Part shown: positions 7,318 through 9,903 of the stretch, in pieces | How positions within the stretch are numbered: the stretch's first letter is position 1 | Layout: every line of letters starts with the position of its first letter | Origin: an uncultured Chloroflexia bacterium | GTDB taxonomy: Bacteria; Chloroflexota; Limnocylindria; Limnocylindrales; CSP1-4 | DNA: 64,000 nucleotides | Assembly (NCBI GenBank): GCA_963766735.1 | Contig: CAVYBU010000007.1 | Coordinates: forward strand, 160,001-224,000 | Reading direction: 5' to 3' | The notes under the pieces: model-generated | Told to the model about the DNA's origin: nothing | The model's database searches: none | The model's input: the letters and a program-made list of their open reading frames with translations, nothing else | Program-made: the position numbers and the translations under genes

Positions 7318-9903
7318 CTACTTGGCGAGGTGCCGCTGCATCGCCGCCTTGCGGGACAGGTTGACCCTTCCCTGGCGGTCGATCTCGGTGACCACAACCA
7401 TGACCTCGTCGCCAACCGACACGACGTCCTCGACGGACGGCACGTGGTAGTCGGCGAGCTCGCCGATCCGGATGAGGCCTTCCCTGCCCGGCAGGATCTC
7501 GACGAAGCACCCGAAGGTCATCAGGCGGGTGACCTTGCCCAGGTACAGGGCGCCGATCTCGACGTCGCGGGTCAGGCTCTCGATCCAGGTGATCGCCTTG
7601 CGCGAGTTCTCGCCGGAGACGGCCGCGATCTCCACGGTGCCGTCGTCCTCGACGTTGATGTTGGTGCCGGTCTCCTCCTGGATCTTGCGGATCATGGACC
7701 CACCCTTGCCGATGATCTCGCGGATCTTCTCGGGGTTGATCTTGATCGTGATGATCCGGGGGGCGAACTCGGACATCTCCTCGCGCGCCGAGGGCAGGAC
7801 CGAGGTCATCTTGTCGAGGATGAACAGACGGGCGGCGAGCGCCTGCTTGAGGCCCTCACGGATGACCCGCTCGTCGATGCCCTTGACCTTGATGTCCATC
7901 TGGAGGGCGGTGATGCCCTCCGTGGTCCCGGTGACCTTGAAGTCCATGTCGCCGATCGAATCCTCCTTGCCGAGGATGTCGGTCAGGACGACGAAGTTGC
8001 CCGTGTCGCCATCGAGGACGAGGCCCATCGCCGCACCGGCCACCGGCGCGGTGATCGGCACGCCCGCGTCCATCAGGGCGAGGGTCGAGCCGCAGGTTGA
8101 GGCCATCGATGTCGAGCCGTTGCCGGCCACGACCTCGGACACGAGGCGGATGACGTACGGGAACTCTTCCTGCGTCGGGAGCACCGGCAGGAGAGCCCGG
8201 GCGGCGAGGTTGCCGTGCCCGATGTCACGTCGCGACGGCCCGCGCATCGGCTTGTTCTCGCCGGTGCTGTAGGGCGGGAAGTTGTAGTGGTGGAGGTAGC
8301 GCTTGGACAGCTCGGGGCTGATCGTGTCGATCCGCTGGACGTCCGAGGACGGCCCTAGCGTGGCGACGGTCAGCGCCTGGGTCTGGCCACGCGTGAACAG
8401 GCCGGAGCCATGCGCACGCGGCAGGAGGCCAACCTCGACCGAGATCGGGCGGATCTCGTCGGTGGCGCGGCCGTCCATCCGGACGCCCTCGCGGAGGACG
8501 AGCTCGCGGACGGTCTTCTTCTGGACGAGACCGAACAGATTCTTGCTGAACCGCGCGTTGCGGCGGGCCGCCTCGAGCAGGCGAGCGGACTCGTCCTTGT
8601 CGGTGCGGGTGGCGCGAACGGCGGTGGCGATGCCGTCCTTGAGGGTCTCAATGCGGCCGGGAAGGTCGTTGCCGAACCAGATCAGCAGGTTGGCGGTCGC
8701 CTCGGCATCCGGCAGCGCGCGGTGGTTCTCGCTGAGCTCGACGCCGAAGAACTTGGCCAGGGTACCCAGCTTGTAGTTCTCGAGATCCGGGTAGCCCTCA
8801 CGGGCGATGACCAGCGTGTCGAGGTAGCTGCCGGCGGGCATCCGGGTTCCGTCGCCGAGGGCCTCCTCCAGGAAGGCGATGTCGAAGCCGACGGAGTGGC
8901 CCACGACCATCGCGCCGCCCACGAACTCGAGCGCCTTGCGCGCGGCCTCGGCCGGGCTCGGGGCTCCCTTGACGTCCTTGTCGGTGATGCCGTGCATCTG
9001 GTTGCCGACGATCGGCCGGCCGGGGTTCACCAGCGTGGACCAGCGGTCGGTGATCTTGCCGCCCTTGACGCGGACCGCGGCCACCTCGATGAGGTCGGCC
9101 ATCTTGGGATCCGTGCCGGTCGTCTCGACGTCCACGACAACGAACTCGCCGCCCGCCTTCGCCATGTCGGCGAACGTGAGCACGGAGTGTGTCAGGGGCT
9201 CGAGGTACGGGACGAGCTTGGGCTTGCCCACGAGCTCCCGGAGCTTCTCCTGGATCTCCACGAGCGGCAGCAGGGACCGCTGGGCGAACAGGATCGCCTC
9301 GGCCATCACGTCCTCGGGGAGGATCTTGACGCCCGCCTCGACCATCATGATCGCGTCACGGGTGCCGGACACGACAAGGTCGAGCTCGGACTCCTGGAGC
9401 TCTGTATAGGTCGGGTTGAGGACGAACTCGCCGCCGATCCGGCCGACGCGCACGGTGCCGACGGGACCCTGGAACGGGATCTCGCTGATCGACAGCGCGG
9501 CCGACGCCGCGATCGTGCCGAGGATGTCCGGGTCGTTCTCCTGGTCCGTCGAGAGGACGGTGATCACGACCTGGACGTCGTCCTTGTAGCCCTCGGGGAA
9601 CAGGGGGCGGATCGGGCGGTCCGTGAGCCGTGCGGCGAGCGTCGCGGCCTCCGACATCCGGCCTTCGCGCTTGATGAAGCCGCCGGGGATCTTGCCGGCC
9701 GCGTACATCCGCTCTTCGAACTCGACGGTGAGCGGGAAGAAGTCGAGACCGGGCCGCGGCTGGCTGCGGTTGGCCGTCCCGAGGACGAGTGTGTCGCCGT
9801 AGCGCAGGGTGACTGCGCCTCCGGCGAGGCCGGCGAGCTTGCCGGTTTCGAGCGTGAGAGTTCGACCGCCGAACTCGATCTCGAGCGTGGTGGGAGTGGG
9901 CAC
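7318..9903 (-). CDS. pnp: Polyribonucleotide nucleotidyltransferase (PNPase) with an in-frame inserted DEDDh exonuclease domain (aa ~253-410)
   Basis: PH1 (DFFPLTV, AAGKIPGGFIKREGR, RLTDRPIRPLFP), PH2 (HGSGLFTRGQTQ, HYNFPPYSTGE, RRDIGHG, GDMDFKV), KH (IIGKGG) and S1 domains; 861 aa against about 700 for typical PNPases; directly downstream of rpsO. Confidence 0.97.
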   Translation of the reverse strand: MPTPTTLEIEFGGRTLTLETGKLAGLAGGAVTLRYGDTLVLGTANRSQPRPGLDFFPLTVEFEERMYAAGKIPGGFIKREGRMSEAATLAARLTDRPIRPLFPEGYKDDVQVVITVLSTDQENDPDILGTIAASAALSISEIPFQGPVGTVRVGRIGGEFVLNPTYTELQESELDLVVSGTRDAIMMVEAGVKILPEDVMAEAILFAQRSLLPLVEIQEKLRELVGKPKLVPYLEPLTHSVLTFADMAKAGGEFVVVDVETTGTDPKMADLIEVAAVRVKGGKITDRWSTLVNPGRPIVGNQMHGITDKDVKGAPSPAEAARKALEFVGGAMVVGHSVGFDIAFLEEALGDGTRMPAGSYLDTLVIAREGYPDLENYKLGTLAKFFGVELSENHRALPDAEATANLLIWFGNDLPGRIETLKDGIATAVRATRTDKDESARLLEAARRNARFSKNLFGLVQKKTVRELVLREGVRMDGRATDEIRPISVEVGLLPRAHGSGLFTRGQTQALTVATLGPSSDVQRIDTISPELSKRYLHHYNFPPYSTGENKPMRGPSRRDIGHGNLAARALLPVLPTQEEFPYVIRLVSEVVAGNGSTSMASTCGSTLALMDAGVPITAPVAGAAMGLVLDGDTGNFVVLTDILGKEDSIGDMDFKVTGTTEGITALQMDIKVKGIDERVIREGLKQALAARLFILDKMTSVLPSAREEMSEFAPRIITIKINPEKIREIIGKGGSMIRKIQEETGTNINVEDDGTVEIAAVSGENSRKAITWIESLTRDVEIGALYLGKVTRLMTFGCFVEILPGREGLIRIGELADYHVPSVEDVVSVGDEVMVVVTEIDRQGRVNLSRKAAMQRHLAK

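Follow-up and report, generated by a model that had tools for sequence, protein, structure and literature searches.

The window analysed here is a stretch of 64,000 nucleotides from contig CAVYBU010000007.1 of an uncultured Chloroflexia bacterium. On its minus strand, at 7318–9903, ORF (open reading frame) calling gives a GTG-start frame of 861 amino acids. It encodes a polyribonucleotide nucleotidyltransferase (PNPase), and its gene, pnp, follows directly on rpsO. Within the PNPase lies a complete DnaQ-like DEDDh 3′–5′ exonuclease domain, inserted in frame after the first RNase PH domain (PH1), just where the helical domain begins.

The pnp gene and its inserted domain

The 861-residue protein scores 930.5 bits against the NCBIfam model TIGR03591 (polyribonucleotide nucleotidyltransferase; cut-off 525.05) and 927 against NF008805 (cut-off 471). 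The TIGR03591 match is split into two stretches with the insert between them, and the gap coincides exactly with the matches to the DEDD, PolC and DinG exonuclease models. Pfam identifies RNase_PH (PF01138) twice, RNase_PH_C (PF03725) twice, KH_1 at 718–775, S1 at 781–852 and, at 255–407, RNase_T (PF00929; E 3.6e-28, 99.6 bits against a cut-off of 24). The domain order is thus RNase_PH, PF00929, RNase_PH, KH, S1, as anticipated in a preliminary description of this DNA that was made from the letters alone. That description had also reported an 861-residue pnp in the rpsO-pnp position, carrying an insert of about 158 residues and leaving about 703 without it. The ORF calls and the alignment with plain PNPases bear this out: the insert comprises residues 253–410, and subtraction gives 703. 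Plain PNPases from a sister family are 736–757 residues long by ORF calls. The helical domain appears to be kept but diverged with respect to plain PNPases; PF03726 matches only residues 447–479, with 21.8 bits against a cut-off of 24.6. Judged by its sequence, the frame is a bona fide housekeeping PNPase in an rpsO-pnp operon.

The translation of 8707–9132 on the minus strand begins with D258 and ends with D399, and all the DEDDh motifs named in the preliminary description fall inside it. ExoI comprises D258 and E260 (codons 9130–9132 and 9124–9126), ExoII comprises H336, S337 and D341 (codon of D341, 8881–8883), and ExoIII comprises H394 and D399 (8722–8724 and 8707–8709). Between them lie HGIT at 304–307 and the pair D362–T363. 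The replacement of the usual ExoII Asn by Ser, also noted earlier, is real and polymorphic: position 337 is S in 24 and N in 19 of 43 fusion proteins, and N in 41, S in 38 and A in 1 of 80 species loci. There is no compositional break, the GC content being 0.67–0.70 throughout the insert and its flanks. No intein (Hint) or homing-endonuclease family is found by Pfam in the 861-residue protein at E 0.01 or better, in agreement with the earlier statement that it lacks intein motifs. Pfam likewise finds there none of the superfamily-2 XPD/DinG helicase domains (DEAD, Helicase_C_2). Among the best 25 of 64 NCBIfam matches, those to the insert are of the DEDD-GIY-YIG, PolC, DinG and epsilon types, and no Orn or RNase T model appears.

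A full-length AlphaFold2 model was built with a 48-row alignment of fusion and plain PNPases, and the insert was also modelled alone. The full model has a mean predicted local distance difference test score (pLDDT) of 83 and a predicted TM-score (pTM) of 0.75, with pLDDT 84–96 over the insert. The stretches of low confidence (49–86, 524–531 and 543–562) are known flexible loops of PNPase. Foldseek matches the whole model best to PNPases (E 1.6e-65, 36–41% identity). A helix at 239–249 enters the first strand of the insert. At the other end the ExoIII helix (H394, D399) is unbroken through residue 431 (helix 396–431), and is followed by helices at 436–450 and 454–472. Since it continues to 431, the ExoIII helix is the same helix as the first one of the PNPase helical domain. 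The insert is therefore predicted to be a rigid two-point graft and not a floppy tether.

For the insert-only model (pLDDT 93.4), the PolC exonuclease, the DinG exonuclease and epsilon superpose with TMq 0.69–0.71 and root mean square deviations (rmsd) of 2.0–2.4. The top matches are the PolC exonuclease 9qpc (rmsd 2.0, 36% identity) and S. aureus DinG 8zef (rmsd 2.1 over 162 columns). A CRISPR-associated DnaQ domain superposes as well. RNase T, ExoX, ExoI and Orn rank lower, RNase T first coming 13th and Orn 46th, with rmsd 4–5. Searching the PDB by sequence yields a like ranking: the PolC exonuclease is best (E 4e-24, 36% identity), and neither Orn nor RNase T is among the matches at 1e-5.

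A structural study of E. coli PNPase (Nurmohamed et al., 2009, PMC2723993) places the helical domain on the face of the torus opposite S1/KH. There it helps to form a pore, apart from the central channel, that reaches the active site and is suggested as the route of nucleoside diphosphates (NDP) and phosphate. The insert hangs on this domain, which agrees with its earlier assignment to the ring face opposite KH/S1. From connectivity alone, the DEDDh site would lie beside the pore. The features are collected in Table 1.

Table 1. Domains of the fusion PNPase and the adjoining rpsO gene, in window coordinates
Feature	Position	Strand	Evidence
pnp, PNPase with inserted DEDDh domain, 861 aa	7318–9903	−	ORF; TIGR03591; Pfam set
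RNase PH1, aa 1–230 (RNase_PH, and RNase_PH_C at 146–209)	9214–9903	−	Pfam; AlphaFold2 pLDDT mostly 70–95 except loop 49–86
Linker, aa 231–252, with helix 239–249 entering the insert	9148–9213	−	Alignment with plain PNPases; AlphaFold2 secondary structure
DnaQ-like DEDDh 3′–5′ exonuclease domain, aa 253–410	8674–9147	−	PF00929; translation check; insert-only model; Foldseek
Residual PNPase helical domain, aa 411–475	8479–8673	−	AlphaFold2; PF03726 below cut-off; alignment
RNase PH2 with phosphorolytic site, NGSTSM 595–600 and GDMDFK 651–656	7789–8478	−	Pfam; motif conservation
KH domain, aa 716–775	7579–7758	−	PF00013, E 4.8e-12
S1 domain, aa 781–852	7348–7563	−	PF00575, E 1.2e-16
rpsO, 94 aa, directly upstream of pnp	10028–10312	−	ORF; S15 identity by eye from translation

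The order of genes in the operon is nusA-infB-rbfA-DHH/DHHA1-truB-ribF-rpsO-pnp, followed by asd and a UDG-family gene. In two of the upstream frames the recognisable domain starts late. The rbfA ORF (13699–14601, minus strand) has its RBFA domain at residues 106–209 of 300 and overlaps infB, and in the nusA ORF (16595–18406, minus strand) NusA_N begins at residue 167 of 603. These long N-terminal extensions arise when the first start codon is taken; the true starts are probably downstream, or a small domain may be hidden in the NusA extension. The 1034-residue frame at 3205–6309 on the plus strand is a spurious long ORF antisense to real genes, of a kind expected at about 70% GC; there are others alike, and none of them should be annotated.

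Distribution and conservation of the fusion

A word-indexed search of 5.8 billion proteins with residues 235–440 gave 2088 matches, the best 120 of which were examined. All 120 are proteins with RNase_PH and PF00929, or fragments of such proteins, with 73–100% identity in the insert region. Most are 858–867 residues long, the shorter ones being fragments, and they are recorded under Chloroflexota or Candidatus Limnocylindrales. Their database labels include 'polyribonucleotide nucleotidyltransferase', 'exonuclease domain-containing protein, partial' and 'DNA polymerase III epsilon subunit family exonuclease'. RNase_PH plus RNase_T protein clusters also exist in the ESM Atlas, where they are commonest in Chloroflexota. 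No independent origin was seen outside Chloroflexota, in searches that did not cover other phyla systematically.

The distribution within the class (Limnocylindria/Limnocylindrales, a name taken from the titles of public records) was assessed in 121 genomes of five families, f1, f2, f3, f4 and f83, using residues 180–480 as a query that spans both junctions. A complete junction-spanning match is present in 36/36 genomes of f1, the window's own genome included, in 5/5 of f2, which belongs to the same order, and in 38/40 of f3, a total of 79/81. The two exceptions in f3 are a partial match (G460; residues 1–216 in a 410-residue frame) and a genome of 92% completeness without a match (G422). No junction-spanning fusion is found in the sister families f4 (0/39) and f83 (0/1). 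There the query meets only an exonuclease part, in frames of about 890–1000 residues, and the PNPase is in separate frames of 737–774 residues; plain PNPase was confirmed for two genomes of f4 and one from another class. These tallies include unpublished genomes, namely G442 and G451 (f3, with the fusion) and G461, G446, G427 and G467 (f4, with DinG and no fusion), and the figures for insert identity include G344, G173, G272, G145 and G227. With the unpublished genomes removed, f3 has 36 complete, one partial and one absent match out of 38, f4 has the fusion in 0/35 and the DinG helicase domain PF13307 in 34/35, and the conclusions are the same.

A scan of species-representative genomes found 538 relatives; 80 loci were kept for analysis, and the junction query matched in all 80: over residues 1–300 or 1–301 in 75 and over shorter spans in five, four of which end at a contig end, while the fifth (L158) begins at query residue 14. 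The loci are nearly all titled as Limnocylindrales, Limnocylindria, Chloroflexota or Chloroflexia metagenome-assembled genomes (MAGs). Four (L115, L135, L149 and L153) are short contigs whose MAGs bear the names Verrucomicrobiia, Patescibacteria, Polarisedimenticolia and Deferrimicrobiaceae, with fusion pnp genes 63–87% identical to that of the window; these are most likely mis-binned Limnocylindria contigs.

Contigs from other sequencing runs bridge the junctions, a check that the preliminary description had set for the assembly. Contig X1, from a DNA study, bridges both (8628–9018 and 9020–9189), and so does X5, from a second DNA study (8615–8881 and 9086–9351); one of the two DNA runs possibly represents the sample from which the window itself came. 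Parts of the gene are also covered by contigs from a metatranscriptome library, one of which (X16, 8813–9228) bridges the N-terminal junction; such a library may contain DNA, and hence no claim of transcription is made. An assembly chimera, or an intein or mobile-element insertion private to this genome, would be the simplest way to dismiss the fusion. Since the same junctions recur in 79/81 genomes and 80 species-level records, and since contigs of other studies bridge both of them, this explanation is excluded, and the absence of any Hint/intein family, the flat GC content and the single in-frame ORF also tell against it. We regard it as refuted, with a negligible residual probability.

Both catalytic centres are well conserved. 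In an alignment of 43 fusion proteins from f1–f3, to which plain PNPases were added to make the 48 rows mentioned above, D258, E260, D341, H394 and D399 are invariant in 43/43, even though the identity of the insert between families falls to 42–52%. A further 20 insert positions are invariant (25 in total), among them T261, T262, H304, G305, H336, D362, T363 and R395. Among the 80 species loci, D258 and E260 are kept in 80, D341 in 79, H394 in 78 and D399 in 77, the exceptions being gaps and one row with R and T. For the phosphorolytic site, N595, G596, S597, S599, M600, G651, D652, M653, D654 and K656 are invariant in all 48 rows, fusion and plain PNPases alike, and T598 and F655 are nearly so (90% or more). 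These belong to the motifs GS(T/S)SM and GDMDFK, which we take to be the PH2 phosphate loop and the PH2 metal site, respectively. Of the 80 loci, 72 retain S597 and S599 and 71 retain D648, D652, D654 and K656, the remainder being gaps from truncated frames.

Ratios of nonsynonymous to synonymous substitution rates (dN/dS) were calculated by the method of Nei and Gojobori (NG86) between the window gene and 11 relatives. They are 0.13–0.37 for the insert, comparable to the other PNPase domains (PH1, 0.08–0.34; PH2, 0.02–0.32; KH-S1, 0.13–0.44). The residual helical domain is the loosest part, at 0.16–0.60. The conservation of the DEDDh residues and of the PH2 motifs indicates that both catalytic centres are under selection, and the fusion as a whole appears to be held under purifying selection in three families.

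Relationship to DinG and to other nucleases

The DEDDh domain of the sister family f4 belongs to a DinG-type exo-helicase and forms its N-terminus, Pfam finding PF00929 followed by DEAD and Helicase_C_2. The DinG helicase domain PF13307 is present in 38/39 genomes of f4 and in the one genome of f83 (39/40 sister-family genomes). It is found in only 2/81 genomes of the fusion clade (f1 1/35 apart from the window's own genome, f2 0/5, f3 1/40), and it was not found in the window's own genome, which is 93.85% complete. In a wider sample of the phylum it is present in 97 of 151 genomes, and in 0/15 of the fusion-clade genomes among them. The two exceptions in the fusion clade are both odd. One, in the fusion-bearing f1 genome G441 (G441:C10:19756-22632), is a 2041-residue frame that matches PF00929 weakly (29 bits) and Helicase_C_2 with 81 bits; it could be a giant DinG-like protein, either acquired or divergent, or else a contaminant. 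The other (G196) is a 107-residue fragment at a contig end.

The PNPase insert is the sole PF00929 match in 67/81 genomes of the fusion clade, the window's own included. The f4 genomes mostly have one PF00929 match also, the one in DinG. In f2, whose genomes are 1.0–1.4 Mb, G133, G309, G357 and G459 have an additional stand-alone DnaQ-like ORF of about 206–246 residues, which most genomes of f1 and f3 are without.

Two quick maximum-likelihood searches with IQ-TREE, of 85–87 DEDDh domains, place the inserts in a single group (Shimodaira–Hasegawa approximate likelihood ratio test, SH-aLRT, 89–94). Their nearest neighbours are Chloroflexota DEDDh domains in frames with Helicase_C_2 (from G376, G004, G232 and G320), and the PolC-type rows group apart from them. 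A tree constrained to hold the inserts and the f4/f83 DinG exonucleases as one clade is not rejected by the approximately unbiased (AU) test (p 0.84), and its log-likelihood is 26 units better than that of the quick free tree. A tree of the PNPase core columns divides the fusion rows, without exception, from f4 (SH-aLRT 96 for the fusion side and 100 for f4). The insert would thus appear to have been inherited vertically with the PNPase core. The simplest history suggested by these data is that a DinG-type exonuclease domain was inserted once into pnp, in the ancestor of f1–f3, with loss of the DinG helicase gene. For descent of the insert from a DinG exonuclease, we put the chances at slightly better than even.

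A protein search with the insert alone gave 31358 matches at E 1e-3 or better, headed by fragments of this fusion. It did not point to a single closest donor: beyond the fusions there is a flat field of DEDDh domains of about 45% identity, in many architectures. One sequence that nests among the inserts in the trees (P0146) seems to be a piece of a disrupted fusion gene. Other architectures were also met in this survey. P0129 (1045 residues) has three tandem PF00929 domains followed by GIY-YIG and UVR, a triple-exonuclease Cho-like architecture. P0176 (736 residues) has FAN1_HTH, VRR_NUC and a C-terminal DEDDh exonuclease by Pfam, and is a repair-nuclease fusion with the same DEDDh type; P0208, P0227 and P0258, of about 705–718 residues and also with a C-terminal DEDDh domain, group with it (SH-aLRT 94–96).

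The genome's other 3′ exonucleases were surveyed. RNase PH is present, and neither PF01612 (RNase D-type) nor PF00773 (RNase R/II) was found in the window's own genome. PF00773 was not found in any of the class genomes (0/121) and was found in 14/151 of the sampled phylum genomes, and RNB exoribonucleases thus seem to be largely missing from Chloroflexota. The absence of RNase R/II was considered as the driver of the fusion and rejected, as PF00773 was found no more in the sister family with plain PNPase than in the fusion clade, and is rare phylum-wide. The DHH/DHHA1 gene of the operon, between rbfA and truB and three genes upstream of pnp (12671–13702, minus strand), encodes a 343-residue protein that is an NrnA-like candidate nanoRNase. 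A need for the insert as the only nanoRNase was therefore also rejected. The preliminary description had suggested that the insert could finish nanoRNAs, an idea weakened both by this gene and by the placing of the insert on the PolC/DinG/DnaQ branch and not with Orn/RNase T.

Possible functions and comparison with known systems

The DEDDh site is probably an active hydrolytic 3′–5′ exonuclease. The reading that we favour, with modest confidence, is that an active exonuclease of DinG type has been grafted onto a working PNPase and has taken over DinG-like trimming of 3′ ends. Each protomer would then have two 3′–5′ exonuclease sites, the phosphorolytic PH2 site in the ring channel and a metal-dependent hydrolytic DEDDh site. 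The latter would have a fixed position on the side of the ring away from KH/S1, next to the pore through which the helical domain gives access to the PH2 site. The exonuclease module would descend from the corresponding N-terminal domain of a DinG-type exo-helicase, and DinG is missing from the fusion-bearing families; it is this kinship, together with the missing DinG, that leads us to think that the hydrolytic site does DinG's 3′-end trimming. Its substrates would be those of the DinG exonuclease in the relatives, namely RNA in RNA:DNA hybrids and tails of single-stranded DNA (ssDNA) or RNA (ssRNA), with the RNA-binding PNPase ring replacing the helicase as the delivery module. The DEDDh site may also give PNPase a phosphate-independent means of finishing or clearing 3′ ends, and may handle ends that PNPase brings near but does not, or should not, phosphorolyse.

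The kinship with DinG and its absence point at least as much to work on RNA:DNA hybrids or DNA 3′ ends as to bulk RNA decay. Such a role fits the activities described in published work on B. subtilis, where DinG degrades ssDNA and hybrid RNA (PMC12525004), and PNPase attacks the RNA of R-loops (PMC13251995), breaks down ssDNA and has a part in the repair of double-strand breaks (PMC2709576, PMC3241651). A bolder version is that the PNPase ring took over the delivery of the DinG exonuclease, making a two-chemistry single-chain machine for R-loops, stalled forks and ordinary decay. This is distinctly more tentative. If true, RNA turnover would be physically merged with genome maintenance, in a one-polypeptide bacterial analogue of the PH-ring exosome and its hydrolytic partner.

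Several observations weigh against the favoured reading. PF13307 was not found in some plain-PNPase families either (f7 0/4, f16 0/5, f17 0/10, f20 0/7). The complementarity of DinG and the fusion comes from a gain and a loss on one branch, a single coincidence, and is therefore suggestive and not statistical. The tree of the PNPase core is rooted on a single long-branched outgroup. The backbone forks of the DEDDh trees, which are quick searches only, fall below 95, so that the phylogeny of the insert against known DEDDh types, proposed in the preliminary description, yields DinG-type nearest neighbours with an unsettled backbone; for this reason a DinG origin is favoured rather than demonstrated. 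Two of the 80 loci have changes at H394 or D399, although these may be frameshifted contigs. Finally, the location of the domain, inside the RNA-decay enzyme of the rpsO-pnp operon, argues for ordinary RNA substrates over a DinG-like job.

This last point leads to the strongest rival, in which the DEDDh site is a general helper in RNA decay, the 'single-chain exosome' of the preliminary description, that shares the RNAs of PH2 and has no special link to DNA or R-loops. It would finish short oligoribonucleotides, trim 3′ ends, or sustain decay at low phosphate or high NDP. The fusion of the domain into the main RNA 3′ exonuclease, in a housekeeping operon and on the helical domain that lines the side pore to the PH2 site (PMC2723993), is what this rival would lead one to expect, and hydrolytic 3′ exoribonucleases are scarce, PF00773 not being found in the class genomes sampled, nor PF01612 in the window's own genome. 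The choice of substrate by DEDDh enzymes is moreover plastic, S. aureus DinG being described as degrading ssRNA (PMC12525004). Nonetheless, the NrnA-like gene in the same operon could clear nanoRNAs without the insert, the scarcity of RNB enzymes extends to the plain-PNPase sister family and the phylum and does not explain the fusion, and the insert is not of the Orn/RNase T type by either PDB sequence matches or Foldseek rank. We consider a role of this kind plausible, but less probable than a DinG-like one.

Two further explanations, like the artefact dismissed above, are progressively less likely. The domain might act on DNA only, in repair or proofreading, with PNPase as a mere scaffold, trimming ssDNA 3′ ends or serving as the sole DnaQ-like nuclease. 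Its closest solved relatives are indeed all DNA exonucleases (PolC exonuclease, DinG, DnaQ, epsilon and ExoX), it is the only PF00929 domain in the window's own genome and in 67/81 of the fusion clade, and B. subtilis PNPase is itself connected with ssDNA degradation and break repair in the papers cited above. Yet most sister-family genomes are without a stand-alone DnaQ, and proofreading in the class thus seems independent of a DnaQ protein; nothing links the fusion PNPase to the replisome, and its partner is an RNA-binding machine with intact KH and S1. A DNA-only role is therefore improbable. It is more improbable still that the domain is catalytically dead and has a structural or regulatory function, such as gating of the pore or recruitment of a partner. 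About half of the members have Ser in place of the usual ExoII Asn, and changes in the helical domain are reported to affect PNPase activity (PMC2723993). Against this, the five metal- and water-activating residues are invariant at insert identities of 42–52%, as are 25 positions in all, including H304, H336 and R395, and the insert has dN/dS values like those of catalytic domains.

Both parts of the fusion belong to textbook families, and the combination is annotated automatically in databases. PNPase is among the most studied enzymes of RNA decay, and is described as purely phosphorolytic. The preliminary description knew of no characterised PNPase of this architecture, and our literature search likewise found no paper describing a PNPase–DEDDh fusion, subscription journals and supplementary files being outside its reach; the main text of a 2026 paper on Limnocylindria genomics has no mention of PNPase, exonuclease or DinG. 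The fusion is a ready-made system in which to study the division of labour between phosphorolytic and hydrolytic 3′ exonucleases, which elsewhere needs separate enzymes, and through it one can probe what the poorly understood helical domain does, side pore included. The apparent exchange, in which DinG is lost and a DinG-type exonuclease appears in PNPase, suggests that the two have overlapping substrates, such as R-loop RNA and ssDNA 3′ tails, which fits what has lately been reported in B. subtilis for either enzyme on its own (PMC12525004, PMC13251995). The main experiments should be easy, since the protein is one soluble polypeptide and comes from harmless environmental bacteria.

It is useful to set the fusion beside the systems that it most resembles. 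With bacterial PNPase (E. coli 3GCM/7OGL, C. crescentus 4AIM) it shares the PH1-helical-PH2-KH-S1 order, the phosphate and metal motifs of PH2 and the rpsO-pnp operon, and differs in having a complete DEDDh domain of 158 residues added at the start of the helical domain. DinG (B. subtilis, S. aureus; PDB 8ZEF) has an exonuclease domain akin to the insert and is present in the class where the fusion is absent. In DinG, however, the exonuclease is N-terminal, whereas in the fusion it is internal, and the fusion protein is without a helicase domain; by sequence, only its exonuclease module is DinG-like. The proofreading exonuclease of PolC (9QPC, 2P1J) is the best solved match to the insert in both sequence and fold, and PolC likewise holds a DEDDh domain inside a larger enzyme, as in P0182, where PF00929 lies within the PHP span. 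The host enzyme of PolC is, however, a DNA polymerase. Orn and RNase T belong to the same DEDDh superfamily and have the same set of catalytic residues, but are not the best matches of the insert in sequence or fold.

A parallel in concept is the eukaryotic and archaeal RNA exosome, a PH ring with an S1/KH cap that works with the hydrolytic partners Rrp6 (DEDDy) and Rrp44. A PH ring combined with a hydrolytic exonuclease is common to the exosome and the fusion, as an analogy and not a homology of arrangement. In the eukaryotic exosome the hydrolytic enzymes, of DEDDy and RNB type, are separate subunits, and the PH ring is catalytically inactive. In the fusion, by contrast, the phosphorolytic motifs of the ring are preserved, and one chain carries the ring domains and the hydrolytic domain together.

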